From a virus, in IMG/VR virus record IMGVR_UViG_3300032093_000012, positions 64,001 to 128,000 of that record: DNA of 64,000 bases, one strand, 5' to 3'. A program made the translations under genes and the position numbers. A model generated the notes under the pieces. The model saw only the letters and a list, made by a program, of their open reading frames with translations, did not search any database and was not told where the DNA came from. Shown piece by piece: positions 9,849 through 48,916 of the stretch. How positions within the stretch are numbered: the stretch's first letter is position 1; each line of letters starts with the position of its first letter.

Positions 9849-10108
9849 ATTTTAGTAGCTCCTTTAATAATCCATCCATCAATTTTATAATCATTACTTA
9901 GCCTTTTAACATGTTGCTGAGCTAAAGCAATGGCATCATCTCTATTTTTAGCGCGAACTTCTACTTCATGTAGATCATATAACATTCGTTCATATGGTTG
10001 AATAGTTACTTTATAGAGAGAAGTATTTTTATTTTTCTTTAACAAGTCTTTTAAATAACCAACTGGCTTGTTATTCCAGATATCTTCCATCTCAGCTTTA
10101 TTTAGCAT
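9845..10108 (-). CDS. Hypothetical protein
   Basis: Tightly packed ORF within the operon. Confidence 0.6.
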   Translation of the reverse strand: MLNKAEMEDIWNNKPVGYLKDLLKKNKNTSLYKVTIQPYERMLYDLHEVEVRAKNRDDAIALAQQHVKRLSNDYKIDGWIIKGATKI

Positions 10109-33917: not shown

Positions 33918-34222
33918 TACCTCTGAAACACTTCACGTCCACGACGATCATAACCAACAAACTCATCCCAACATGGACGGCTATTGTAATAATACATGCC
34001 TGTACCAAGAGCGCCGAGCGCAAGACCACCGAGAGCATACGGGACCCAGTTATTCTGGCGATGACGAGGCGGGTGATAGTGCTGGCGTGGAGGCGCATAA
34101 TGATGACGAGCGTGTGGCTGACGATAACCATGATCTCGCCTGTGATGGTGTTGTGCAAAAGCAGGCGCAGCCGTGAGTACAACCAGTGATACTGCTATGA
34201 CACCTAAGATGATCTTACGCAT
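33908..34222 (-). CDS. Secreted His/Arg/Pro-rich protein of rhizobial type (BA14K-like architecture)
   Basis: Signal peptide APAFA, low-complexity region, GGLALGALG segment, C-terminal Cys pair. Confidence 0.6.
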   Translation of the reverse strand: MRKIILGVIAVSLVVLTAAPAFAQHHHRRDHGYRQPHARHHYAPPRQHYHPPRHRQNNWVPYALGGLALGALGTGMYYYNSRPCWDEFVGYDRRGREVFQRYCQ

Positions 34223-34318
34223 GTTTCTTTACCTCTATGACTACAAAACGGGTGTGATCATAATAACCAATTTCCCAGTAGTTCGTCACGATATTATAAC
34301 GGCTCACATACTTCATGA

Positions 34319-34845
34319 TTAGACCCTCTCGATGATGGGACGACCAATAACCTGAATCTTGTTAGTACGCTTACCTTCCATATCCTTAGCAAACTTGATT
34401 GCAGACTGGAGGGTGGCAAACTTGCACGTCTGATCGGTGCTCAATATACCATACAAAGCACTTGACTTGTTAACATGCTTGATATCATATGTGACTTTAA
34501 ACCTGTACATGCTTGCCTCCTATGCTTGTTACATCTATATATTACCACAGTGGCACTGTTTGTACATATTTATTTTGAGTCGGGGCGGATCATGCGAATA
34601 TTTTCTCTATAGTCGCGCAGTGTCTTCACATCGATTTCATGTGCTGCAGTGTAATAGGCAGCTGCACCAATCATGACGAAGACCCATGCAACTGCTATCC
34701 ATGTAGCGATGAATACGTCATTGAGGATTACTGTAAGTTCTGTGCGGAGACCGAGCGTGCTGGTAATGCAAATGATTACGAGGAACGAGATCTTAAAGAA
34801 GTTTCGCACAAACCCAGATGAAATGTCATAACCATTATGCATCAC
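34319..34845 (-). CDS. Two small hypothetical proteins (34319..34510; 34570..34845 membrane)
   Basis: RBSs present; TGTACA promoter at 34561-34566 between them. Confidence 0.55.
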
Positions 34846-34860
34846 TTGTCTCCATTATAT

Positions 34861-34889
34861 AAAAAAGAGGGGAGAGTACTCTCCCCTCT
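34861..34889 (-). terminator. Rho-independent terminator after the omp gene
   Basis: Minus strand AGAGGGGAGAGTACTCTCCCCTCT followed by TTTTT. Confidence 0.85.
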
Positions 34890-34898
34890 AAAGTCCTA

Positions 34899-35441
34899 TT
34901 AGAACTTGTAGTTTACACCGGTTGTAACGCGATCTTCGGCATTACGGTTGGCTTTCTCGATAGCATCGATCCGACGATAGCGTACATCAAGCTCAACACT
35001 TGGTACGATCTCGTACTTAGCACCAACACCAATGTTATAAACGGAATAATCTGCAGTTACAGAATTCCAACGATAACCAACACCGCCGATACCATAAACG
35101 GTAACGTCAACGCCGGGAATCTTGTACTGTGGTACAACGTTTAGAGCAAATGTATTGCCATAATTCCACTCACCACCAACCTTAGTCTGTGGACGAGAGA
35201 AGTCATATGTACCCTCTACTGCGAGGAACGGAAGGACGTTCCAGCCAGCAACAGCACCACCAGAGTAGACGCGAGCATCTTCACTCAAGTTTGCACCGAC
35301 ATTAACACCAGCATAGAACTGAGTCTGTGCGAGTGTTGGAAGTGCCGGAGCAGCCGGAGCCTTCTTTGAAGGTAGATCAGAAGCCGAAGCTGCTGCTGCC
35401 GACGCAAGAAGAGCGAGCGCCGCTACGATAGTCTTTTGCAT
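34899..35441 (-). CDS. Omp25/RopB-like 8-stranded outer membrane beta-barrel
   Basis: Signal peptide then SDLPSKKAPAAP (Rhizobiales ADLPxxKAP motif), FYAGVNVG, terminal GVNYKF. Confidence 0.85.
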   Translation of the reverse strand: MQKTIVAALALLASAAAASASDLPSKKAPAAPALPTLAQTQFYAGVNVGANLSEDARVYSGGAVAGWNVLPFLAVEGTYDFSRPQTKVGGEWNYGNTFALNVVPQYKIPGVDVTVYGIGGVGYRWNSVTADYSVYNIGVGAKYEIVPSVELDVRYRRIDAIEKANRNAEDRVTTGVNYKF

Positions 35442-35604
35442 TTTAGTTCTCCTAGTTTGTTACATTACTCAAAGATGTTTCGGATTAAAAAGAATAAGCC
35501 TACTAATATAGGCATCCAAAACAACATTATTATTAGCCAGAAAGCTTGTACGAACTTGTCGAATAACTTGCTGGCACTTACATGCTCATGAAGCATGATC
35601 CTAT

Positions 35605-35823
35605 TTATAACCCTAGAGCTTTATGGGTGTACTTGAGATAGCCACCCTTAAAGTCATGAGTCAAGTATTCAGAGAGGATCTCAAAACGAAGGGCTGCTGC
35701 TTCGTCTGAGGAGTCTCTGAGCTGTTTAGCTGCATCATTGCAGAAACGGATAAGAGAGACCAATGAGACTTTGTCCTCGTGGTCGTGAAGAGTCATAGCT
35801 TGCTTTTTACCAGGGCGTTGCAT
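35605..35823 (-). CDS. Hypothetical protein
   Basis: GGAG RBS and promoter upstream. Confidence 0.55.
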   Translation of the reverse strand: MQRPGKKQAMTLHDHEDKVSLVSLIRFCNDAAKQLRDSSDEAAALRFEILSEYLTHDFKGGYLKYTHKALGL

Positions 35824-35996
35824 GTGTCTGTCTCCATGTTATACTTTTCATTATATACACTTTTCAGAAAATGTATACAGTTAAATATCACCTTCCCATG
35901 GGTTCTTGTAAGGATCTATCTTTAAGATCTTAACTTCCAAGATATAGATCATAGCGCAGTACAATATTACTGCTCCTGCAATCATAAATGCATCCA

Positions 35997-36287
35997 TCAT
36001 CTCTTAACACTCCATTCACGTGGTCTTTCTGGTGCAGGTTCGGGTCCGGGCACGACGGGTGTATTACTGATACGACGATGGAGGTACTCACCAATAGCTT
36101 CACGTATGCATGACGATGGGTCTTTTCCCATTGCCTCTGCATACTCGTACAGTCTGTCTCTCAGGATAGTATTACAACGAAACGAAGTAATTCGATTTTC
36201 CATACCTGACTTAGCACGATACAGCGATGTCGCGCCATCTTTATATTGGTGTCTCTCTGGCATTATACCTTGTATGTGTAGTAGCAC
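35997..36287 (-). CDS. Possible ribbon-helix-helix DNA-binding protein
   Basis: RITSFRC...LRDRLYEYAEAMGKDPSSCIREAIGEY fits the RHH pattern. Confidence 0.5.
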   Translation of the reverse strand: MLLHIQGIMPERHQYKDGATSLYRAKSGMENRITSFRCNTILRDRLYEYAEAMGKDPSSCIREAIGEYLHRRISNTPVVPGPEPAPERPREWSVKR

Positions 36288-36568
36288 TCTACTATCGATT
36301 TGAGTTTATCATCCATGATGTTGTTACACCAGTCATGATCCATGATGCCACAACACAGGTCCATATAGTCTTCGACAGTGAGGAACTGTTTACATAACAT
36401 CAGGTACTCGTATTGTGTACGAGGTTTCATGACTTGTTTACCATTTATATATCCGAATTCTCGAGAGGCTGGATCGAGATAACGTGTATCAACGAGCTCT
36501 GAGTTATCGATCAGACCTGTGTCTTCTTTCTTTATCTTTGGTTTAAATTCTATGATATCAGCCATCAC
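36263..36568 (-). CDS. Hypothetical protein
   Basis: MADIIEFKPK start typical of alphaproteobacterial phage proteins. Confidence 0.55.
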   Translation of the reverse strand: MMADIIEFKPKIKKEDTGLIDNSELVDTRYLDPASREFGYINGKQVMKPRTQYEYLMLCKQFLTVEDYMDLCCGIMDHDWCNNIMDDKLKSIVECYYTYKV

Positions 36569-36999
36569 ACATCTTTCATCAGACGTTGGATACGTGTTAC
36601 AATGCTCTCTTTGCCAGCGCGCAGTCGACGCAATGCTTTTCGCTTGATATGCATTCGAATCTTTGCTGATTCAGAGAAAGATTTCATGTTACGAATGTCA
36701 GAATCGATATCAGCGATACGAATAGGATTATAACCAGCGGTGTGATCTTCCCATTCACGGGCGATATAGTCAGCGATCCACTTATCGGTGTCCATAAGCA
36801 TCTCGTATTCTTTACGAGCTTCAGCTAATTGTTCTGCTGGACTCCAACAAGCGAGGGCAGTTTCTTTGTCTAAATAAGCTGTAGGCACAATAGTATTTCC
36901 TTGTGATCCAATACTGATACTATTAAATGCTTCTTGTGCTACCGATGGTCCTGCTGCTGCTCCGAGACCTAGTAATCCTAGCATTGATCGTCTATTCAT
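36565..36999 (-). CDS. Protein with twin-arginine (Tat)-like signal
   Basis: MNRRSMLGLLGLGAAAGPSVA. Confidence 0.6.
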   Translation of the reverse strand: MNRRSMLGLLGLGAAAGPSVAQEAFNSISIGSQGNTIVPTAYLDKETALACWSPAEQLAEARKEYEMLMDTDKWIADYIAREWEDHTAGYNPIRIADIDSDIRNMKSFSESAKIRMHIKRKALRRLRAGKESIVTRIQRLMKDV

Positions 37000-37002
37000 G
37001 TA

Positions 37003-38337
37003 TCACCCGCAATATGCTCGTGTTTGTTTCCAACAGTCACAGTCTCTGCACATCCTGTCTGGATTTTCTGACTCACAGTTTCGTTGGTCTCTCTGATCAA
37101 GATGGTGTGCCTTCACTTCCATCATCTTCTTGTATTGTCTCTCGTATGCAGCGAGTAGATGATCGTATGCTTTGATGTGTTTATCCTCGATAGCAGCGAC
37201 GAACTCTTCTAGCTCTGGCATATCTGCATTACCGCTGATAAAGTAACGACGTGGTGTCTCATTATCAATATAATTGACGAGACCTGCATCGAGTGCTAGC
37301 TGTAGGATCTCTGGCTTCATGTCACCACTCCAAGATCGTCACTTTTGCACACAAGTTGCATACACAAAAGCTGCCCATCTACTATTAGATTTAACGGAGT
37401 CCAAAGCAACCATACAGTTCTTTTCAGAGGTAAACTCTTGCATGGTCACTACCTGCCCACTGTTTACTACCGATATAACAATCAAAACATATAGCATTAC
37501 TTTACCACTCCGGGCCAGTTGTCTTTTCGGTACGTTGATATATGTATGCGAAGTCGACGCCATATGCAGGTACAACCAACAGTTTTTCTGGCATGTTATT
37601 CGTATCACGTTCACCTAACACACCACTGATAAACAGTGTATCAGGATGACTCTCAGGTGTCAACCGACGAAGGATCGTGGCCTGCATATCACACTTATTC
37701 TTGAGTCGTGTAATATCTTCCATAAGTGATTGAATAAAGCGTTTTGTTTCATCATTCTGAGTCATTGTCTACCTCGATGCAGTGCCAGACGTGTGGATAA
37801 CCATCGCTGGATGCTGCGTGTACTGTGCCTAGATATGTACCTTCCCAGCTCATGCCTGTACCGGTAAATCGTAGTGTTTTCCAGTCGACCAGAGCATCAG
37901 ATTCTTTAGTGTTTGGTAGATCTTGCCATGATGGATCAACCTCGCACCACACGTATGGATCACCGTGTTGAACACCGAAGCTGACAGGTCGACCAAGGAC
38001 CTTCAGTGATTCGCCGGGCAGAAATGGACCGAATTTCCAGATTGCTTTCATATCAAAATTCTTCCCAAAAGTAAACAGAGTTCTTTGTCTTGAACTTCAT
38101 TGATCGAAGCCCATTCTTATCAGTGTATTCCTCGAGGATCTCTGTGACTGGTGATGTTTGCCACCAGTCTTGCATGGTGTAGCTACGAGCGTAGTATGAC
38201 CCGACGCGGACACCGCACCCTACACGTGGGTATGTCTCACCGGGTATTGGTTGGTATGATTCTGAGTCGAGGATCTGGCACATTGGTCCGGAGTCGCCTG
38301 CTGACCCGTCTTCACGTACGAGTGAGTATTTAGTCAT
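37003..38337 (-). CDS. Run of small hypothetical early proteins (37003..37320, 37339..~37496, 37502..37765, 37752..38051, 38053..38337)
   Basis: Tightly packed co-oriented ORFs. Confidence 0.55.
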
Positions 38338-38696
38338 TACTTGCATTCCCTTACGTGTTTGCAGTCTTTGCGAAATCCGAAGCCTACGCAGGTACAACTC
38401 CAGTGTTGGCCGTTACGTGTGACTGTGTAGGATGTACCGGGTTTGGTGCCGGCGACGATGTGGGTCTCGCTGTCGCTCTTGGTTGTATTACTAGTGTATC
38501 CAGAGCCGATGATGCGGTTGAGGTCGATGATGCGAAAGGGGAATTGTGTTTGGCCTGTTGACAGGCATATGCAGTCTGGACCGACCCAGCGTGGGTTTGG
38601 TAGGACTTTGCCCGTGTATGTGTTGACCAGTGGACCGGGCATATTGGTCTTGACTTGTTTGACTTGGATGGTGATGTCTTGTCCGATGGCGTACAT
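38337..38696 (-). CDS. SWIM zinc-finger protein
   Basis: YTV.....WSCTCVGFGFRKDCKHV; start reassigned to MYAIG after a GAGG RBS. Confidence 0.75.
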   Translation of the reverse strand: MYAIGQDITIQVKQVKTNMPGPLVNTYTGKVLPNPRWVGPDCICLSTGQTQFPFRIIDLNRIIGSGYTSNTTKSDSETHIVAGTKPGTSYTVTRNGQHWSCTCVGFGFRKDCKHVRECK

Positions 38697-38704
38697 GGTT
38701 GTCC

Positions 38705-39192
38705 TCAGTCGCAGGAGTCGGCAACTTTGAGTGTGCAGTAGAATAGGCCGTCTTTTTCCCATTTGTCAGTGATGCGAGGGAAGTAGACGTAGTTGTGTTC
38801 GTCTTGGTATTTGCCGAACTCGGCTACTTCTTCGAGGGAAGAGAAGCCGGTGTAGGTATTGTACCAGTCGCGGCCTTGTTTCTTGCGGTCCACGAACTGT
38901 AGGTGTTTCCAGTCTGTCTTCATCTTGCCACCATTACTTTCTTGTTGATCAGGTCGTAGGAGACGTAGCCGTCTTTCATGAGGATCTGGCCGGGAGCCTC
39001 GTCCTTGAGGCGAGAGAAGTAACTCTCTGTATCGTAGTACTTGCAGAGCAGGCGGACATAGTCTGATTTCTTGACCATGCCACGATACTTGAACCGAGCC
39101 ACGAACCGGTTATCAGGTCCGTAGGTGAGGTATCCGCCGTGATAGTTGAACTGTGACCGCTCGAACTTCATGTGTTCCACTCCGTTATTCAT
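38705..39192 (-). CDS. Two small hypothetical early proteins (38705..38923, 38920..39192)
   Basis: Downstream of the TGTACA promoter at 39221-39226. Confidence 0.6.
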
Positions 39193-39249
39193 ATTAAGAT
39201 AGTACCATACCCACAGTCCCTGTACATGTTTATTTTAAAAATAATTCGA

Positions 39250-39440
39250 GACCTGATAACCTATTGACCAGTATACCAATCCACCAGTCAACCTATCCAC
39301 CTGTAGACCTGTTAACCTGCCGACCTGTAGACCTACCGGCCTGCCGGCCTACCTGACCTGTAGACCTATCAACCAGTAGACCAGAGGACCAGTGTACCTA
39401 TGGACCTGTAGACCTGTAGACCTACCTGACCTGTACCTAG
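39250..39440. repeat. Degenerate ~8-nt tandem repeat (ACCTGTAG / ACCWRYNG)
   Basis: About 20 ACC-anchored units, e.g. acctgtag-acctgtta-acctgccg-acctgtag. Confidence 0.85.
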
Positions 39441-39490
39441 CCATACACGTATACCCTCATGCATACCTGATATACATGATCTCATCTCCC

Positions 39491-39673
39491 CTAGAACAAG
39501 AGACCAGCAGACTCACGTTCCTCAGCATCAAACCGCTTAACAACCGCCTCCTTGATCTCAGTCATACGAGCATGCATGCCCGGTACCTCAATAACCTCAG
39601 CGATACAGATCATCTCCTCAATAAAATCATGGATAGTCCAAGTGCTAGTCTTATTCTCAGAATAGGCAGACAT
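39491..39673 (-). CDS. Small hypothetical protein
   Basis: GGAG RBS; plausible helical 60-aa product. Confidence 0.45.
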   Translation of the reverse strand: MSAYSENKTSTWTIHDFIEEMICIAEVIEVPGMHARMTEIKEAVVKRFDAEERESAGLLF

Positions 39674-39810
39674 GTGTTACTCCATAGGATATATTATGCT
39701 CGATACTGCTCATTATACAGTAGCAGTATATACCATGTACATGCCCTGAAAGGGTCTATTATAGTATTACAAACCAGAGAAATTGATAATTCTGACGTCC
39801 GCGCTAGGGT

Positions 39811-40104
39811 GTGTTTCTGTGGATGGAACACGATACCGCCTGCAGGAACACAACTACGCAGAGCTCTGTTCCGCATACAGGAACACGCGATGTGACACGA
39901 GCATGACTTGGCAATCCCAGTGTTTCGCATGGAGGAACACCGTGATCAGCAGCACGCATGACTGGCCTCCGGAGGGTCCGGATCACCATTTATAGATCCA
40001 TTCTATCACATCAGTTTTTTTTGTACATAGCGCTTTAGTATAATGTACACGTGCTGTGGGATGTGGTATAATGAAATGAGGACATGTTTCGCATGGAGGA
40101 ACAC
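39811..40104. repeat. Palindromic 21-nt repeats (G)TGTTYC-N7-GGAACAC
   Basis: Copies at 39811-39831, 39866-39886, 39920-39940, 40084-40104, plus a half copy ending at 39851. Confidence 0.8.
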
Positions 40105-40262
40105 GGGATCTACCAACACTCCCAGCTCCCCGCTCTCCCCGGACTTCTATTATATCCTATCAAGTTTCCTGCCTATGTACACCGTTTTTTTTCGATTTTT
40201 TTTTCGAAATAAGCATGTACAATCCCGGTGAGCTTGATATAATGATCTTATCGAATGGAGGA

Positions 40263-43200
40263 ATGGTTATGCAGTTCACTCAGTCCCTCGCTTATACCCG
40301 CCTGCTGGCTAAGGGTGTGAAGATCATCGATTCCCGCTTCCGTCCTCTGGCTAAGCTGGATGATGATCGTCAGTTTGAGGCCATAATGGAGATCGCGATG
40401 GAAACGATCGACGAATCCACTTTCGATCTCACGTACTTCCTCCGTAGTGAAGCTGAAGATGAGCTCGACGAGATGGAATACGAACTTCACATGACCCTCC
40501 AGGCTGATCTCACCTCATATCTCGTCAATGAGATTCGCGAGATCACCCGCCTCAAAAAAGAGATCGTCTTCTAAAAAAAGCATGTACATGTCACCTGGAT
40601 GTGGTACATTTAGATAGTCAACTTGGAGAGAATCACATGAGCAAGTATCGTTCCTCGGCCTACGTGGCCACTGTGTATGACATCAATGATCCGCTCATTG
40701 CCGAGCAGAAGCGAATCGCACGTATCATCAATGCCAAGAAGCGAGTGTTCGAGTTGCAGGGTATTGGCAAGCAGGTGACGTATGGTGATCGCACCTACGT
40801 AGAACGCACGCGTGTCGTCGTTCGTCCTCGCCTTGGCAAGAACAATGTCCACGCACCACTCTATCGTCGTGGTGGAGCACTTAAGCGTATGAGTGCACAG
40901 ACGATTCGTCCTGAACATGGCACACGCTTCGACGTGTACATGTCACCTGCCTTGGTCCAACGTAAAAAAGTTTGAAATAAGCATGTACATATCACGGTGA
41001 CTGTGGTAGGATATATCATGGTCAAGGAGAGAGACATGATACTGATCGAACTGACACTGCCCACCTTCTGGGCGTCTTCGCTGGTCAACGGTGACGACAC
41101 CGGTCTAGATGACGAAGATCAAGCCCAGCTGGATGCCTTCATCGATGACATGGTCAACCAGTATGGCAAGTGCTGGTGCCTCGGCATCAAGGACGGCGAT
41201 GAGCCTGTCTTCACCTCGTACCACGACGCCAATGCATTCGGTGTCCTGGCCTGTGACTGCGCAATCTTCGTATTTGAGGGCTGAACCATGCAAGCTGAAC
41301 AACTCCACCTCGAGAACCTCCCATTGGCCGATGCACAGGCAAAGGCCATTGCCATCCTGAAGGACACCAAGACGAAACAGGCAAAAGTTAACAACCTGGT
41401 CCGAGACGTCCAGCGTGCCCGGTCCTCCCGCGAGGTCCAGCGCATCATGTGGAACACCCTGCTGGCAGGCACCGGCTTTGGCACGGTGGACAGCCCCTGG
41501 CAACAATTTCACAAAATGACGTAAAAAACGCGAAATAAGCATGTACAAGCATGCAGGACTTGATAAGATCAGATAGTAAGCAAATGGAGTACACACGATG
41601 AGCACCTCAGATATCATGATTGTCCTGGCCCCGTTCGCGATCCTGTGGTCGGTCATGGCCATCGGGTTCCTCATCGTCCACATCTTTGAAGTGAAAGGAA
41701 ACTAAGTCATGACTACTGCGACTGTTGAAGCCATCAAGGCCAAGAACCTCGACACCATGCGTGCTGTCACCCAGATGCTCAAGGACGAGCAGCGCGCCCC
41801 TAAGCGTTCCACCAAGGAAGTCCCTGCTGCCAAGCTCCTGAAGGAAGTTGGTGTCAAGGTGCCCAAGCAGGCAGGTAAGGAAACGAAGCTGGCCTGTTCC
41901 CTGCGCTTGATCGAGACCTACAAGGTCCGTGATGAGTTTGTCAAGATGCTGCAGGGCCACTTCCCGGATCTGTCCGAGTTCAATGCCCGCTGCTACTTCA
42001 ATAAGGTTCGTCAGGGGTGATCCCTCTCCTCCGTATACCCTGACGCTTGTTGGGGCCGGTTGCCTTAGCGCGCTGGCCCCACTTTTTTCGAAAATAAGCA
42101 TGTACAACCCCTCTGGATATGGTATTCTAGATTATACCAAGGAGAGAGCACCATGTACACCGTTGACCAGATCCGCACCATCCTGGACGAGCTTGAGTCC
42201 AACTACTCGATGGCTATGGACTTCCAAGCCTATCCCCTGGCTAATCACCTCCTGAAGCAGATCGATGCCCTCCGGGATGAGTTGGTTGGCCTGATCATGG
42301 CCGAGGATCCTTATACGTCTGAGGCTGATGTCCGCTACTTCGAGGGGTTCTGAGATGCAGGTAATAGCCAACTGCCAGGCCGGTGGCCACAAGACCGGCG
42401 AGCTCAATGACATCACGGTCGAGGAGATCAGCGCCACCCTGGGCTTCGAGCCTAACGTGGATGATGATCCCTGTAAAGTGGTCAATTCCTGGGGCTTCAC
42501 CGTCGATGGCCATGACTGTGGCATCTGGGACTATAAGGGCTCTCACAAGATCGGCATGTTCTCCACCTTCGGTCCGGACTACGTCTTCCGCGCACTGTTC
42601 TCACCATACTACAGCCGCTGATTCCTGTACATTATACTAAAGCACTATGTACAAGGCACGTGACTGTGGTAGGATTAGATATCAAAAGGAGAGACTAACA
42701 TGCAAGCACAGACCTACAGCATCATCGAAGCAGTCCAGGACTTTGGTCCGATCGTCCACGTGGACGAGGATCTTGGCTTCATCTTCTGCTGGAACCGCAA
42801 CCACACCTTCAATGTCCTGACCAAGTTCAATGATCGTTATCAGGTGGTTGACGCTTTCCAGAACTACGACGTCGAACGCACAGATTCGCTGACCAAAGTG
42901 ATTAGCAAGTGCGAGTGCTATTGCATCAATCTCCATGACGAGCTCAACGAGGAGTATGCTTAATGTCCAAGCTGTCTCAATTCATCGTCAAGCACAACGT
43001 CGAGGATGGCTACTCTGTGGCCTTTGCTGTGGAACGCATTGCCATCTTCCTTCGTTGTTCAGAGGACGAGATCCTCTCTGGTGCTCTTAATGACACCAAG
43101 GCTGCACAGTATCTTCTTAACCTTTCTCGGAGACTCGCTAATGTCTAAGAACCTCGAACTGGCGAAAGCCATCCGCCACGGCCTCTTCGCAGACCGCGCC

Positions 43201-43606
43201 ACTGTCAAGGAAGCATTTGATTATGCCTTTGACGTCATCTCCCGCCTCCCTTCTTCTGAGCAGATCGCTGCCACGACAGCCATGTACGTCGTCCTCAACA
43301 CGATCTCCAAAGAGATTGAGAAGAACGAAGCGGCTGCAGAGGAATACCCTGCAGGCGGCGGCATCGAGAAGGCCTTTGCCACAGGCGACCACTCTCCCAA
43401 GAACGTCTGGCCATAAGGATAACACCATGTCTGAGACACTGACTCCTACATCATGGACCATCATCGTCCGCAAGGGCTCCATTGGTGGCAACCTCATCAT
43501 CCTCAAAGAGGAATACACCGACTATGACGCTGTCATGACCCGCCTTGACGAGGTCGAGCGCAACTACGGTAGCCGCTACTGGATCGACCTACGCACCCAC
43601 TACTAG
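40263..43606 (+). CDS. Cluster of small GC-rich early hypothetical genes (40263..40574, 40637..40975, 41036..41284, 41288..41524, 41598..41705, 41709..42020, 42153..42353, 42355..42621, 42700..42963, 42963..43148, 43141..43416, 43427..43606)
   Basis: Most have GGAG/AGGA-type RBSs, many behind a TGTACA promoter; C-ending codon bias. Confidence 0.65.
42051..42088 (+). terminator. Rho-independent terminator
   Basis: TGGGGCCGG...CTGGCCCCA followed by CTTTTTT. Confidence 0.7.
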
Positions 43607-43798
43607 GACTAGCCTAGAGCAGGACCAGTGACTATGGTAAGCTCTAGGTACCCTTTTACTATACTGGATCTAGTACGTCGGTCTCCTATTAATAGACTTT
43701 GCGTTCCCTCACTTTGAAAATTTTTTCTGGAAATTTTTTTAGCTCTCCACGGTCATATAGCTGTTTACATCTGTCCTCATCTGGGGTATAATGATTTC

Positions 43799-44777
43799 AT
43801 GATCAAACATATTACTGATAAAGACAACTACTGGGTACGAGTTACCTGGCGTAAGACTGTGGTACCTTACGGTCCCCGTAAGGTACAGACTATTACCAAC
43901 CTGAGTAGGGATAGAGCTTCTCAGTTGTACCGTAGGTATGACTATGAGATGGAAATCCTTGACATCTACAAGGTGGAGATGGGTCGAGGATGAGTAAGTA
44001 TCGTTTAGAGGTATCTCATTGGACCCGTAGCCGTGATGGGGATGATTGGGTTGACTCAGAGTATTGGGTTAACTTTCAGTCTCTATCAGAGGGCATGGAG
44101 CGTATTGAGAGGATCTCCGATCCCTTGAACAGGAGTCTTATAGAGGTACGTCTCTACAACATGACTGATAGTAAGGACCTCGTTTACAGGAAAGACTTTA
44201 TCTCAGGGAAGGTGGAGGATTATACTACTATCCCTGATTTCGATTATCACAACAAGGAGTATGACAATGGTAAGTAAAGCAGCAGAATACACTAAGACTA
44301 CAGATACTAAAGAGAAGAAGCCGGGCCGGTACGTGTTCTACGTGAACGTAGATCAGTACTGCAAGCAGGGTTGGTTGAACCAGATCTTCATGTCCGAGTC
44401 GCGCAGCGAGAAGCTGCTGCGTATCAAGGCTGAGATCGCTCGCTCAGGTTTCTTCAAGCCAGATGAGGAAGTCCTCATCGTCCCCTCTAACGGCACCCAT
44501 CTCGAGAAGCTCTGGGAAGAGTAAGATCTCTCTGGAAATCTAGAAAAATGTGCCGTAATAGGATAGAGAAATGACAGACGTACTAGATGAACTGACACAG
44601 GCATATAGCTTTACCAGAGATGAACTTCTTGGTAAAGCTATCGACGAGATCGCTCAACAACGTAGACACATCGAGAACCTCTCTCGAGAACACTCAGACC
44701 TACGACATGAGAATCAGATCCTCGTAGAGATCAATCGAGACCTACACTGGAAAATGGAATATGAGAGGAAACACTAA
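43799..44777 (+). CDS. Small hypothetical genes (43799..43993, 43990..44277, 44261..44524, 44571..44777)
   Basis: Behind a GTTTACA...TATAAT promoter at ~43763-43792. Confidence 0.6.
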
Positions 44778-45235
44778 TGTCCGATGCATTTACACAGGAA
44801 GAAGCATGGATCTTCGACATGGATGGTACACTCGCTAACTCTAAATGGCGACAACACCACCTCATGGGCATCAAGAAAGACTGGAAAAGCTGGAATACCG
44901 GCATGATCCACGACCTGCCAAATCATGAGATCATCCAGTTTACTCATATCGCTAAGGAAAAAAACATCGCTGTCATAGTCTGTACAGGCCGAGAGGATAC
45001 ATACAGAAAAGACACCGAAGATTGGCTCAAGATGCACTGCGTTTCCTACGATATGCTCTTCATGCGAAAGGCAAAAGACTATCGCAAGGATCAATTCATC
45101 AAGAAAGAAATGCTCGAGACTATCAAGTTTCTTAACTACAACCCTACACTCTCTTTCGACGATCGCGACCGAGTGGTCAAGATGTGGCGAGAAGAAGGTA
45201 TCCGATGCTTTCAGGTCGACTACGGCGACTTTTAA
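44777..45235 (+). CDS. HAD-family phosphatase (PseT 3'-phosphatase-like domain)
   Basis: IFDMDGTLA, CTGR, LFMR...DYRKD..IK, FDDRDRVV.MWR..G. Confidence 0.88.
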   Translation: MSDAFTQEEAWIFDMDGTLANSKWRQHHLMGIKKDWKSWNTGMIHDLPNHEIIQFTHIAKEKNIAVIVCTGREDTYRKDTEDWLKMHCVSYDMLFMRKAKDYRKDQFIKKEMLETIKFLNYNPTLSFDDRDRVVKMWREEGIRCFQVDYGDF

Positions 45236-45252
45236 CATAGAAAGGTGATAAT

Positions 45253-45736
45253 ATGCATATCAATGCCAACATCAGCGTAGAACTAGACGAAGATCAGGCT
45301 GACGAAGTCCTGCTTAACATCCTCAAGAGGGACTACGTACGTCTCTACGACGAACGTCAAGATCTCATGCAACGCGTCAATGAGCTTGCAGAGTACGAAA
45401 AAGAAGACCTTGAGCACATTAATGGCTACATAGTCGCTATCGAGACCCTCCTGAAGTACTACATGTACGTCGGAGACGCTGAAGAGTTCATTCGAGGCGT
45501 AAAAGGGGTTTACATCTCTGAATAACCGTGGTATAAAGAGTCTGTAAGTCACAAGGAGACACAAGATGAACGTGTATATCCAGTATCAAGACGTTACAGG
45601 CTCATGGTACCAAGTCATGGTCACAGAAAATGAGGGCCCTCGTATCCTCATGGCCATGAAGACAGTATCCAGCCAGTATCCTGGCTCACGTGTTCGTGCC
45701 GTTGATGAAAACGGGCGAGTAGTTGACATCCTCTAA
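45253..45736 (+). CDS. Two hypothetical proteins (45253..45525, 45566..45736)
   Basis: RBS and GTTTACA promoter; the second was translated manually. Confidence 0.55.
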
Positions 45737-45817
45737 AAAAAGTTGTTGACAAATTTTCATCGTTGTAGTACTATCTAAACAGTGGCAGTGAGCCACACAA
45801 CTAGGAGAATATACATT

Positions 45818-46087
45818 ATGCGTAATACTCAGTCTACCAAGCTCGTCACCGCTCTCGAGAAGGGTGAAGAGCTCACTGCCAAGCAGATCTCTGCTCGGTT
45901 CAACATCGCTAACCCTACCGCAGTCATCGCTAACCTTCGTTCCGAGGGTCATGTGATCTACACCAATACCCGCAAGAATCACCGCGGCGAAACGGTCTCT
46001 AAGTACCGTATCGGCAAGCCCACTAAGCGTCTCGTCGCCGCTGGTCTCGCTCTTCTCGGTGTCCAGGGTGCAGGACTCGTCAACTAA
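45818..46087 (+). CDS. Winged-HTH DNA-binding protein
   Basis: LTAKQISARFNIANPTAVIANLRSEG..IY...YRIGKP; TTGACA promoter and AGGAG RBS. Confidence 0.75.
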   Translation: MRNTQSTKLVTALEKGEELTAKQISARFNIANPTAVIANLRSEGHVIYTNTRKNHRGETVSKYRIGKPTKRLVAAGLALLGVQGAGLVN

Positions 46088-46345
46088 AAAATAATGTCTA
46101 ATAGTTGACAGTTTTACAACTCTGGTGTATAAATAAAGTGATTCCAGAGTTGTAATACTCTCGCTGTTTGACATTGTTGGTAAGAATGTTGAGACAATCG
46201 AAAGGTTGTCTCTTCACGGATGCATCAGAACCCGAAGTGTGTGCACAATATTAACATAGAGGTAGGCTACTCAGCCCGTCTAAGTCGGCCGTAATTGACG
46301 GTGGTATTAGTAGTTAGATAGCTGGTGCATCTTTGTAGAGACAAT

Positions 46346-46422
46346 GGACCCTTAGCTCATTTGGTTAGAGTAGCGGTCTTTTAAACCGTTGGTACTGGGT
46401 TCGAATCCCAGAGGGTCTACCA
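46346..46422 (+). tRNA. tRNA-Lys(TTT)
   Basis: GCGGT-CTTTTAA-ACCGT; CCA. Confidence 0.92.
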
Positions 46423-46439
46423 TAATATGGAGAAGTGTA

Positions 46440-46673
46440 ATGAAGAAGATCTTTTTAGCAAGCGCATGTGGATTATTTTTGGCCGGTTGCAATGCAACTG
46501 TCTATGATAGTCGTCCATCAGTGTATGTTCCTCGGCCGGCAGTAGTCGTACCACCGGTGTATGCACCGTTGCCACCGCCGCGTCCTTACTATGTTCGTCA
46601 ACCTCGTAGAGAGTGTTTTACGACATGGGACCGTACTCCTTATGGGCTGCGCGAGCGAGTTGTCTGTCGTTAA
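46440..46673 (+). CDS. Small Pro-rich lipoprotein
   Basis: Lipobox LAGC; GGAG RBS. Confidence 0.7.
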   Translation: MKKIFLASACGLFLAGCNATVYDSRPSVYVPRPAVVVPPVYAPLPPPRPYYVRQPRRECFTTWDRTPYGLRERVVCR

Positions 46674-46679
46674 AAGTTT

Positions 46680-46769
46680 GGAAGGGTGGCCGAGTGGTTT
46701 AAGGCTCCAGTCTTGAAAACTGGCGTAGGCGCAAGTCTACCGTGAGTTCGAATCTCACCTCTTCCGCCA
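46680..46769 (+). tRNA. tRNA-Ser(TGA)
   Basis: CCAGT-CTTGAAA-ACTGG, long variable arm. Confidence 0.93.
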
Positions 46770-46774
46770 AATAA

Positions 46775-46852
46775 CCCGTGTTAGTGTAGCGATCAAACAT
46801 ACCCGCCTTTCAAGCGTGGAGATCATGGGTTTGAATCCCATACGCGGGACCA
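46775..46852 (+). tRNA. tRNA-Glu(TTC), atypical
   Basis: CTTTCAA loop, one anticodon-stem mismatch, T-loop TTTGAAT, CCA. Confidence 0.75.
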
Positions 46853-46856
46853 ATAC

Positions 46857-46932
46857 GGACCGTTAGCTGAGTTGGTTTTAGCAGGAGACTCTTAATCTCT
46901 TGACGGGGGTTCGAATCCCTCACGGTCTACCA
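46857..46932 (+). tRNA. tRNA-Lys(CTT)
   Basis: GGAGA-CTCTTAA-TCTCT. Confidence 0.9.
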
Positions 46933-46942
46933 AAAAGTTTAT

Positions 46943-47019
46943 TCGCTTGAACCCGAATGGGTATCGGGACCTGACTGTTAATCAGGCCACTGTAGGTTCG
47001 AATCCTACCAAGCGAGCCA
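46943..47019 (+). tRNA. tRNA-Asn(GTT)
   Basis: CCTGA-CTGTTAA-TCAGG. Confidence 0.88.
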
Positions 47020-47102
47020 AATTTGAAGTGTCGGCTTATAGCACTATAAATAAACCGATATATCATCACCGAGTGTTAGTGATGACGCTTCAAGCCAATT
47101 AT

Positions 47103-47177
<75 letters not shown>

Positions 47178-47190
47178 TTTTATAGGATAT

Positions 47191-47358
47191 ATGATGAATG
47201 AGTTTGTGATTGAAGTTGGTGATAAGCGTTTGCAAGTTCATGCAAACAATATGATTGAAGCTATTTACATAGCTAGATCATACAACCAAAAGCGACAAAC
47301 TTATAGAGTAACAGATACAAAGACTGGAAAAACCGTAACAGGTATTCCACTTGATTAG
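47191..47358 (+). CDS. Small hypothetical protein within the tRNA cluster
   Basis: Manual translation MMNEFVIEVGDK...GIPLD; AGGA RBS. Confidence 0.5.
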   Translation: MMNEFVIEVGDKRLQVHANNMIEAIYIARSYNQKRQTYRVTDTKTGKTVTGIPLD

Positions 47359-47361
47359 TTC

Positions 47362-47437
47362 GGGGCCATAGCTCAGCTGGGAGAGCGCTTGATTTGCATT
47401 CAAGAGGTCTGCGGTTCGATCCCGCATGGCTCCACCA
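47362..47437 (+). tRNA. tRNA-Ala(TGC)
   Basis: CTTGA-TTTGCAT-TCAAG; G3:U70. Confidence 0.95.
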
Positions 47438-47497
47438 ATAACGGTTAGTCGCGATAAATAGACTCGCGTGGGCCCACGGTTAGCCCATAACAGTTTC

Positions 47498-47573
<76 letters not shown>

Positions 47574-47579
47574 TATTGA

Positions 47580-47654
47580 CGCAGAGTGGAGCAGTAGTAG
47601 CTCGTTTGGTTCATACCCAAAAGGCCGGTGGTGCAATTCCATCCTCTGCAACCA
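47580..47654 (+). tRNA. tRNA-Met(CAT), initiator-like
   Basis: C1:A72 mismatch; TTTGG-TTCATAC-CCAAA. Confidence 0.8.
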
Positions 47655-47657
47655 ATT

Positions 47658-47808
47658 CACAGGGATGGGTTCCTGTGCGTCACCAACATCACCGATCGCA
47701 CGGTCTGATGTTGGGTATAGTGACCAGCCACTGAGGTCTGGAGTGTGCGATCGTCTAACCCATAAAATCTGACACGCGAAAAGGTGTCGCTGGATGGCAG
47801 TAACCAGC
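47658..47808 (+). ncRNA. Candidate double-pseudoknot ncRNA
   Basis: Five stems plus two loop-to-downstream complementarities (see findings). Confidence 0.65.
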
Positions 47809-47863
47809 TATGTTATAAAACGGCTAATAGTAGCAAATATTAGTAGCCGTTTCATAACATATT

Positions 47864-47940
47864 GGCCTCGTAGCTCAGTTGGTTAGAGTGCCAGCCTGTC
47901 ACGCTGGAAGTCGCCGGTTCGAGCCCGGTCGAGGTCGCCA
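47864..47940 (+). tRNA. tRNA-Asp(GTC)
   Basis: CCAGC-CTGTCAC-GCTGG. Confidence 0.95.
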
Positions 47941-47941
47941 T

Positions 47942-48017
47942 TCCGGAATAGTTCAGCTGGTAGAACATCAGACTCTGAATCTGAGTGTCGGTGGTTCGAA
48001 TCCATCTTCCGGATCCA
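47942..48017 (+). tRNA. tRNA-Gln(CTG)
   Basis: TCAGA-CTCTGAA-TCTGA. Confidence 0.92.
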
Positions 48018-48022
48018 AGCTT

Positions 48023-48099
48023 GGGGAAGTGCGCTGGAGAGGCAACAGCAGGGTCTGCAAAACCTTCGAATGTCGGTTCGAATCCGATCTTCCCTTCCA
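48023..48099 (+). tRNA. tRNA-Cys(GCA)
   Basis: AGGGT-CTGCAAA-ACCTT; U73. Confidence 0.85.
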
Positions 48100-48100
48100 T

Positions 48101-48177
48101 GTCTCGTTAGCTCAACTGAATAGAGCGTCGGTCTACGGAACCGAAGGTTGAGGGTTTGATTCCTTCACGGGACTCCA
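48101..48177 (+). tRNA. tRNA-Arg(ACG)
   Basis: TCGGT-CTACGGA-ACCGA. Confidence 0.9.
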
Positions 48178-48180
48178 TTT

Positions 48181-48255
48181 GCGGGTGTAGCTCAGTGGTA
48201 GAGCGTCACGTTGCCAACGTGAATGTCGTGGGTTCGACCCCCATTGCCCGCTCCA
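48181..48255 (+). tRNA. tRNA-Gly(GCC)
   Basis: TCACG-TTGCCAA-CGTGA; U73. Confidence 0.94.
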
Positions 48256-48260
48256 ATAAT

Positions 48261-48337
48261 GCGCGTGTGACGGAATTGGTATACGTATTAGTCTTAGAAA
48301 CTAAGTTTTGCAGGTTCAAGTCCTGCCATGCGCACCA
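48261..48337 (+). tRNA. tRNA-Leu(TAG) with short variable loop
   Basis: TTAGT-CTTAGAA-ACTAA; only ~5-nt variable region. Confidence 0.85.
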
Positions 48338-48343
48338 TAAATT

Positions 48344-48897
48344 AGGTTCACTACAGCATATAGACATGATAATAGGAAAGTTCCGGTGTACAATTCCGGA
48401 GGACCTAAGGGTCTTAGTGTAATAGGCTAGCACGTCCTAACCTAAGTGTGAACCTGCATAGTTTTAGGCTATCTACAGCATATCTTTCGCCTTGTAAGCC
48501 GTAGGTCGTTGGTTCGAATCCAACTAGGAGCTCTTTGCTTCTATAGCTCAGCGGATAGAGCAACGTAAATGCATAGCCTGTTGAAAATAAATGTTTACTT
48601 AATAAATCTTTATGGTATTATCAAGTTATAGAGTTTAAGGATCCGTACAGCATACTCGCCGTAAGGCACTTTTATTGGAAAAAGCAAAGGGATCCTGTTG
48701 AGTTTAAGATTGACCATACCGCAAAACATTTGACTCTTAGAGTCTTACAGCACTGATACAACTTTGCGAAGTTGTTATCCACGTGGATAGTTTCGAGGGT
48801 ACACCACGTTAAAAAAGGAAAGTAGAAGTCAATCTGTTGAGTTTAGATTCAGTTCCGCATACATTACAGTCTCGAAAAACTGACAAAGTTGAATCTG
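48344..48897 (+). ncRNA. Array of five Y-RNA-like stem-closed RNA cassettes; the first two contain permuted tRNA-like domains
   Basis: Units 48344-48456, 48466-48580, 48638-48697, 48707-48836, 48845-48897 share AGR-stem...(A/T)C(A/C)GCA...stem-CTG(TTGA). Confidence 0.75.
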
Positions 48898-48916
48898 TTG
48901 AAAAGGAGAAAGTGAA

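Follow-up and report, generated by a model that had tools for sequence, protein, structure and literature searches.

A double-pseudoknot RNA of a family uncatalogued in Rfam, embedded in the tRNA cluster of a T4-type phage

Introduction

Positions 47658-47808 of the window, the 64,000-nt stretch of phage DNA analysed here, are the gene for a non-coding RNA of about 150 nt that belongs to a previously uncatalogued family, the word being meant relative to Rfam 15. The RNA, called the knotted RNA below, is read from the same strand as the surrounding tRNAs and consists of five hairpins (P1-P5) and two pseudoknots that join hairpin loops to downstream segments. With 37 further copies in IMG/VR, the family comprises 38 loci and 30 distinct sequences. 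Our preferred reading, to which we assign a probability of roughly 0.55, is that the knotted RNA is set free when the flanking tRNAs are processed and then acts in trans as a stable RNA in its own right; release and stability are inferred from its position.

Clusters of tRNA genes in phages have come to be regarded as loci of counter-defence and of support for translation. The non-tRNA RNAs that they contain, such as RNAC and RNAD of phage T4, which were described decades ago, are still unexplained, as are GOLLD and ROOL. Within this known phenomenon the knotted RNA constitutes a well-defined new family, and it offers a tractable entry point, being small, with a well-determined covarying fold, few invariant nucleotides to mutate, and natural presence and absence among genomes. 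Should it turn out to be a catalyst, or to divert a defence system as a decoy, it would establish a new class of RNA.

The window copy and its fold

The window corresponds to positions 64001-128000 in an IMG/VR virus record of 167 kb with a completeness estimate of 99%, and the knotted RNA is single-copy in that genome. The T4-type DNA polymerase encoded in the window shares no more than 50% identity with the polymerases of cyanomyoviruses, which points to a phage without a close cultured relative. ARAGORN finds 21 tRNA genes on the + strand, at 46346-48337 and 50475-51879. A GC-rich island at 34000-52000 (44-51% GC, roughly 36% elsewhere) holds the tRNA arrays, small ORFs and a Ro-like gene. 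The knotted RNA occupies the 209-nt gap between tRNA-Met(CAU) and tRNA-Asp (Table 1), as part of an insertion of ~205 nt bounded by the 3-nt direct repeat ATT.

The complementarities listed in the preliminary description are all present in the sequence, with coordinates corrected by at most a base or two. Its structural reading, in which two loop pseudoknots are followed by three hairpins, is borne out by covariation, but the AT-rich hairpin that it appended belongs to a separate module. The P2b strand CCAACATCA and the GTCAC described earlier have one C in common. Written as RNA, PK2 pairs CGAUCGCAC with GUGCGAUCG, giving 9 bp and one G-U in the window copy. With just 1 nt between P2b and the PK2 strand of 9 bp in that copy, it may not be possible for every pair to form simultaneously.

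Table 1. Coordinates of the knotted RNA and flanking features in the window, with the family-wide behaviour of each helix (percentages and both-side changes come from an alignment fitted to the nested structure and lean towards it; duplex energies are alignment-free).
Feature	Position	Strand	Sequence and remarks	Across the family
tRNA-Met(CAU)	47580..47654	+	initiator-like (C1 opposite A72), CCA encoded; 3' end sets the 5' side of the knotted RNA; ARAGORN; Rfam tRNA 56.8 bits	
AUU linker	47655..47657	+	ATT again at 47861-47863	
Knotted RNA core, P1 through P5	47658..47808	+	family covariance model R2	
P1 hairpin	47658..47677	+	CACAGG 47658-47663 with CCTGTG 47672-47677; 8-nt loop GAUGGGUU	98.9% of cells paired; both-side changes in 5/6 pairs
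PK1	47665..47763	+	P1-loop strand AUGGGUU 47665-47671 with AACCCAU 47757-47763; exact complement, 7 bp	cognate -6.9 vs permuted -4.4 kcal/mol; 4-8 bp; 25 distinct 3' strands; 0/20000 permutations as good
P2a	47679..47724	+	GUCA 47679-47682 with UGAC 47721-47724	in window subtype only
P2b hairpin	47683..47714	+	CCAACATCA 47683-47691 with TGATGTTGG 47706-47714; 14-nt loop	90-98% paired; both-side changes in 8/9 pairs
PK2	47693..47753	+	P2-loop strand CGATCGCAC 47693-47701 with GTGCGATCG 47745-47753; exact complement	cognate -12.4 vs permuted -6.3 kcal/mol; 5-12 bp; 27 distinct 3' strands; 0/20000 permutations as good
Conserved junction	47713..47720	+	GGGUAUAG	consensus GGRUAUAG
P3 hairpin	47724..47741	+	CCAG 47724-47727 with CUGG 47738-47741; loop CCACUGAGGU	92.5% paired; both-side changes in 4/4 pairs
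CGUCU	47752..47756	+	between the 3' strands of PK2 and PK1; its CG also closes PK2 in the window copy	
AAUCU	47766..47770	+	single-stranded, directly before P4	AAYCU
P4 hairpin	47771..47788	+	GACAC with GUGUC; loop GCGAAAAG at 47776-47783	100% paired; both-side changes in 4/5 pairs; loop RCGNNAAG
P5 hairpin	47789..47808	+	GCUGG with CCAGC; loop AUGGCAGUAA at 47794-47803	100% paired
AT-rich hairpin	47810..47860	+	terminator-like shape: A-tract, CGGCU/AGCCG core, interrupted U-tract	
tRNA-Asp(GUC)	47864..47940	+	ARAGORN; Rfam	

Homologues in uncultured phages

Similarity searches with the window copy returned little. The 209-nt gap was compared by blastn and nhmmer with first 80 and later 166 loci that surround Ro-like gene relatives, and the only similarity was to the AT-rich hairpin. 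Two scans of IMG/VR for the copy's own pseudoknot strands as exact words gave no match, because those strands are hypervariable. Neither the window copy nor the L189 copy was matched by blastn among 50,697 deposited phages, and in a scan of one representative genome per GTDB species the RNA was absent, the single match being a false one of coding type. A literature, motif and keyword search yielded no description of the knotted RNA.

The route to homologues was the AT-rich hairpin type, which led in IMG/VR to contig L177, whose Met-Asp spacer aligns with the 3' two-thirds of the window element. There every stem is altered in sequence with its pairing intact, P3, P4 and P5 retain their hairpin loops, and both pseudoknots are kept in other letters (PK2 reads GGCUACA/UGUAGCC, against CGAUCGCAC/GUGCGAUCG in the window). 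Three pattern scans of IMG/VR, each with a different set of conserved segments, were followed by the covariance models R1 and R2, which match all 38 loci over their full length at 92-155 bits and reject nine pattern matches as false (L203, L205, L211-L215, L224 and L225). Window positions 47655-47810 score 155.4 bits (E 2e-42) over model positions 1-154 of 154; since the window sequence seeded R2, independent support comes from the remaining 37 loci, which score 92-141 bits. The family as sampled here consists of members recognisable by conserved-loop patterns in IMG/VR, and more divergent members, with their contexts, lie outside the sample.

Covariation and the double pseudoknot

In an alignment that was fitted to the nested structure, and whose counts therefore lean towards it, the nested helices of the 30 distinct sequences are 91.3% paired, versus 27-41% when the partners are slid; 25 of the 32 nested pairs change on both sides, and none of 500 shuffles reaches the observed values. 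For P1, P2b, P3, P4 and P5 pairing amounts to 90-100% per helix, with both-side changes in 23 of 29 pairs (Table 1). P2a was rejected as a family-wide helix, being just 48-54% paired and specific to a subtype. An outer closing helix between a 5' AAUUC and the 3' GAAUU trailer, seen by eye in several members, was also rejected, as its AU-rich strands are conserved without covarying and other members lack it. So was a kissing contact between the P3 and P5 loops (ACUG with CAGU), which is lost in variant P3 loops.

The pseudoknots are absent from the covariance model, so that they can be judged independently of it. Without any alignment, we compared the duplex energy of each member's P1 or P2 loop with its own downstream segment against that with the segments of other members. 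The cognate combinations are the more stable for both PK1 and PK2, no permutation is as good (Table 1), and the two pseudoknots hold in all 30 distinct sequences. The compensatory sets of PK1 include GGG/CCC, GAG/CUC and GGAUA/UAUCC as well as UU/AA, CU/AG, AA/UU and AU/AU. The covariation check proposed at the outset has come out in favour of the fold: homologues maintain the nested helices and both pseudoknots with changed sequences. Dozens of helix cells are G-U, which the other strand would read as A-C mismatches, and the RNA strand is hence that of the tRNAs.

These results bear directly on the possibility that the complementarities are chance matches or DNA-level repeats, such as HIP1-like CGATCG palindromes, devoid of RNA function, to which we attach a negligible probability. 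The palindrome CGATCG does occur in the PK2 strands, and single-sequence folding gives a z-score of -4.5 for the whole gap and of just -1.87 once the AT-rich hairpin is removed. However, with 10 copies in 64 kb, and no GCGATCGC, the palindrome shows no enrichment, for which reason a HIP1 origin was rejected, and in homologues the PK2 sequence is wholly replaced while its pairing is kept; the massive covariation has already refuted this reading. The earlier judgement that chance was improbable is likewise upheld, given those maintained pairings and given that two perfect 9-bp helices within 154 nt arise in only 0.02% of 5000 dinucleotide shuffles; within the 64-kb window, such paired helices are found at only three places. 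The proof of the fold comes from the homologues, folding energy being weak by itself. The single-sequence minimum-free-energy structure, a rod spanning 47679-47798, is unlike the double-knot model and was discarded as incompatible with the covarying P2b, P3, P4 and P5.

Near-invariant unpaired segments

Set on these variable helices are unpaired segments that hardly change, all of which are present in the window: GGRUAUAG, CGUCU, AAYCU, the RCGNNAAG loop and the AUGGCAGUAA loop. The GGRUAUAG junction after P2b reads GGATATAG or GGGTATAG in 20 of the 30 distinct sequences. CGTCT is found in 29 of 30, although it was built into the patterns of two of the three member-finding scans (not the first), and the segment before P4 is AACCT in 17 and AATCT in 13. 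In most members the P3 loop has an inner C-G closing a UGNN tetraloop. The P4 loop, whose variants were taken from a scan in which it was not fixed, probably forms an inner C-G pair closing GNNAA, a GNRA-like pentaloop. The P5 loop AUGGCAGUAA is identical in 30/30, including all 23 true members from the scan whose pattern omitted it. Invariant loops carried on variable helices point to a specific partner or pocket, and the invariant junction nucleotides around the double pseudoknot would fit a ribozyme or a ligand pocket just as well as a stand-alone trans-acting RNA.

Genomic context and mobility

Every copy has the orientation of the tRNAs beside it, and in most loci the RNA begins 3-4 nt after a tRNA CCA. 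Of the first 30 loci, 24 begin no more than about 20 nt beyond an upstream tRNA end, and 17 end at most 12 nt before the next tRNA; eight later loci are placed likewise and add Gly upstream and Arg downstream to the neighbours. Altogether the upstream tRNA can be Met, Thr, His, Asn or Gly and the downstream one Asp, Tyr, Cys, Ser or Arg. Two settings are different. In the L186 group, 166 nt separate the RNA from the preceding tRNA-Thr and 9 nt from a following 2OG-Fe(II) oxygenase ORF, and in L198, from a GC-rich phage that is not T4-like, it lies in a 636-nt gene-free gap by an Sf6-like small terminase gene, with no tRNA nearby.

The closest relatives of the window phage have a Ro-like protein 91% identical and an unchanged tRNA order, and the RNA is absent from them. 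In these closest phages tRNA-Met and tRNA-Asp are only 4 nt apart. In relatives that do not have the element (L088, L089 and L090; L004 and L082) the spacer is only TTAT or ATT, and against the collinear L088-L090 the window element is a clean indel of ~205 nt, with no gene gained alongside. From these varied inter-tRNA sites, the presence or absence among near-identical genomes and the one copy outside any tRNA array, we conclude that the knotted RNA is a portable cassette moving among inter-tRNA sites.

An association with tRNA genes this close would also be expected of a cis-acting part of the tRNA operon, a structured spacer that guides or times processing, shields its tRNA neighbours against exonucleases, or, jointly with the downstream hairpin, attenuates transcription. 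The RNA is almost always found between tRNAs and on their strand, and a terminator-like hairpin follows it in four loci, the window included. Yet the hairpin is absent from most members, the tRNA neighbours vary by subfamily, the closest relatives mature the same tRNAs without the RNA, and L198 and the L186 group do not have tRNAs on both sides. Invariant loops and two covarying pseudoknots also far exceed what a spacer needs. We hold a cis role to be improbable.

Two contigs show a further interruption of this region. Just after tRNA-Met in L082 and L083, the T-arm of tRNA-Asp is interrupted by an ORF with HNH-like CxxC and H-N-H motifs, which looks like a homing endonuclease inserted in the tRNA gene. 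In the window, positions 47178-47361, between tRNA-Val and tRNA-Ala, are a second insertion of ~180 nt relative to L089, with a 55-codon ORF (47191-47358) inside.

The AT-rich hairpin

The hairpin downstream of P5 in the window belongs to a recurring type, UGUUAUAAAA...UUUUAUAACA with a covarying GC upper stem. It occurs within tRNA arrays just upstream of a tRNA (L014:1567-1615 in L014/L177, L084:1434-1482, L173:1423-1470) and also away from tRNAs (L170-L172, L175), and it follows the knotted RNA in four loci only, namely the window, L209, L183 and L184. Since it exists elsewhere without the knotted RNA and is missing from most members, we regard it as a separate terminator-like module; in the window copy it would probably serve as a 3' cap or partial terminator. 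The shape of the type is that of a bidirectional terminator.

An aptamer-like conserved core followed by such a hairpin, as in those four loci, is also the layout of a metabolite- or ion-sensing riboswitch, for which 47810-47860 would be the expression platform. This we consider very unlikely. In most members a tRNA follows after 8-12 nt and the hairpin is lacking, so a conserved expression platform is missing; P5 and the hairpin offer no alternative pairing, no regulated ORF lies downstream, and there is no match to an Rfam riboswitch.

Comparison with known RNAs

Searched by cmscan with permissive filters against Rfam 15, neither the window gap nor seven other members gave a match at E<=1. 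The suggestion in the preliminary description that the element might correspond to manA was not borne out, as these eight members match neither manA nor any other Rfam 15 family at that threshold. The manA motif (RF01745) is likewise a phage-associated structured RNA, but its sequence and fold are unrelated to those of the knotted RNA.

In its setting the knotted RNA resembles RNAC and RNAD of T4 (species 1 and 2 RNAs; rnaC, rnaD), which come from the tRNA region and whose role is unknown (PMC3014915, PMC9697503). They are non-tRNA RNAs of 119-139 nt, on the tRNA strand and adjoining tRNA genes of a T4-type phage, and the knotted RNA, too, is a non-tRNA RNA gene on the tRNA strand within a T4-type phage tRNA cluster. 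Model R2, run with filters off against the T4 tRNA region (NC_000866 68000-76000), found no match at E<=10. To our knowledge, no double-pseudoknot architecture and none of these invariant loops has been described for RNAC or RNAD.

Multiple pseudoknots, an unknown function and a frequent location near tRNA islands also characterise GOLLD and ROOL (RF01998, RF03087), which phages or prophages encode (PMC12286853). These RNAs have 4-6 times the length and assemble into homo-oligomeric cages, whereas the knotted RNA is a single domain of ~150 nt without an Rfam match. Mining of IMG/VR has produced a catalogue of unnamed candidate structured RNAs (csRNAs), put at 10,006 or at about 8,500, with lengths of 29-151 nt and no functions assigned (PMC10690425); they share the data source and the kind with our family, being covarying intergenic RNAs of uncultured phages, some of them tRNA-associated. 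A Type III antitoxin RNA (ToxI-like) was dismissed, as the RNA is single-copy, has no internal repeats and is flanked by tRNAs rather than an ORF.

HDV-like theta ribozymes are pseudoknotted, self-cleaving and located immediately 3' of phage tRNA genes (PMC10879173), and they supply the precedent for a ribozyme reading, in which the double pseudoknot and its junctions would be a putative active site for self-cleavage, freeing the upstream tRNA 3' end or the RNA's own ends, or for another reaction. A complex pseudoknot with near-invariant unpaired nucleotides, beginning in most loci 3-4 nt past the tRNA CCA, is compatible with it. Nevertheless, no Rfam ribozyme family is matched at E<=1 in eight members, and no HDV-family model is matched among them. 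Theta ribozymes are smaller and built as a nested P1/P1.1/P2/P3/P4 double knot, whereas the knotted RNA has two side-by-side H-type knots plus three hairpins: its P1 forms locally, as a hairpin closed by an 8-nt loop, its two long-range helices are nested with each other, and the 3' strands of PK2 and PK1 are adjacent, which is not the nested, P1/P2-crossing HDV topology. Furthermore, RNase P and host nucleases suffice for arrays that do not carry the element, such as L088-L090, and the L198 copy has no tRNA to process. We therefore see catalysis as a possibility of low probability.

Release and mode of action

The preferred reading is that of a stand-alone RNA acting in trans. The knotted RNA would be made within the polycistronic tRNA transcript, for which a putative promoter region lies near 46105-46177. 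An endonuclease, along with trimming at the tRNA-Met CCA that lies 3 nt upstream, would free its 5' side, and RNase P cleavage at the 5' end of tRNA-Asp would set its 3' boundary, so that it would be excised by the tRNA-maturing machinery, as is assumed for T4 RNAC and RNAD. The released compact RNA would then act in trans as a self-contained module, most plausibly by offering its invariant loops (AUGGCAGUAA, RCGNNAAG, CGUCU and GGRUAUAG) to a partner, either protein or RNA, that is encoded elsewhere. The roles put forward in the preliminary description, namely a ribozyme, a nuclease-resistant RNA or a protein decoy, are conjectural; catalysis and a decoy function are both conceivable, but the data speak rather for the stand-alone RNA. 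Trans action is suggested by the lack of any co-travelling gene, by neighbours that differ between subfamilies and by the one tRNA-free copy.

A more specific proposal is that the family is a new functional class whose targets are tRNAs or host defences directed at tRNAs. It would be either a catalytic RNA with the double-pseudoknot core as its active site or a binder of tRNA ends through the UGGC of the P5 loop, and phages would express it from the tRNA transcript in order to process, protect or sequester tRNAs or to serve as a decoy for an anticodon or acceptor-end nuclease. The UGGC in that invariant loop is complementary to a GCCA 3' end, and contacts of the GCCA 3'-end type are used by T-box leaders and RNase P RNA. 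We advance this proposal tentatively and think it unlikely.

The Ro-like gene and other array elements

A Ro60-like DUF2828/DUF7788 protein (phrog_850, 'RNA-binding protein') is encoded at 48917-50350, 1.1 kb downstream of the knotted RNA. Directly upstream of this gene there is a string of small structured units that have the ACAGCAUA motif in common. Within it, 48480-48593 gives a Y-RNA-like (YrlA) match that, at 37 bits, falls short of the gathering score, and the whole region, 48344-50350, looks like a phage Ro/Y-RNA system.

A Ro-like RNA-binding protein and a YrlA-like match in the same window could mean that the knotted RNA is the Y-RNA-like partner of the Ro60-like protein, but this reading is largely refuted, and we give it very little weight. 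Positions 47655-47863 do not match YrlA (RF02553), and the two elements part company in both directions: the knotted RNA is found in none of 166 Ro-like loci, and relatives retain the Ro-like gene where the RNA is absent. Conversely, none of the 31 loci from the first pattern scan has a Ro-like gene, and a 157-kb, 90%-complete record that bears the RNA has no Ro-like protein, the positive control of that search having worked.

Other structured elements accompany the tRNAs in these arrays. In the window, a structured leader of ~150 nt (46191-46344) precedes the first tRNA, tRNA-Lys. It shares a long conserved 3' segment, GGUGGU...AGUUAGAUAGC...UCUUUGUAGA, with the spacer after tRNA-Met in L084 (1308-1433), which suggests a second conserved non-tRNA RNA family. 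At the site after tRNA-Met, other modules are found in L010:1767-2059 (= L085), L086 and L087, none of them matching the family model; homology of the knotted RNA with these structured spacers after the same tRNA-Met, and with that of L084, was rejected. One of the modules is a tRNA-like element, GCUCACA...UGUGAGC with a T-arm, and L010 also has a long-stemmed unit around two further T-arm-like hairpins.

Related arrays also carry tRNAs that read UGA or UAG, with anticodon UCA in L003, L004, L010 and L084 and CUA in L014/L177. ARAGORN calls them SeC and Pyl, and they may be suppressor tRNAs. In another related phage contig, L087:11699-12057 is predicted by ARAGORN to be a permuted tmRNA with the tag peptide AAYASNDNVPYSAMKIAA.
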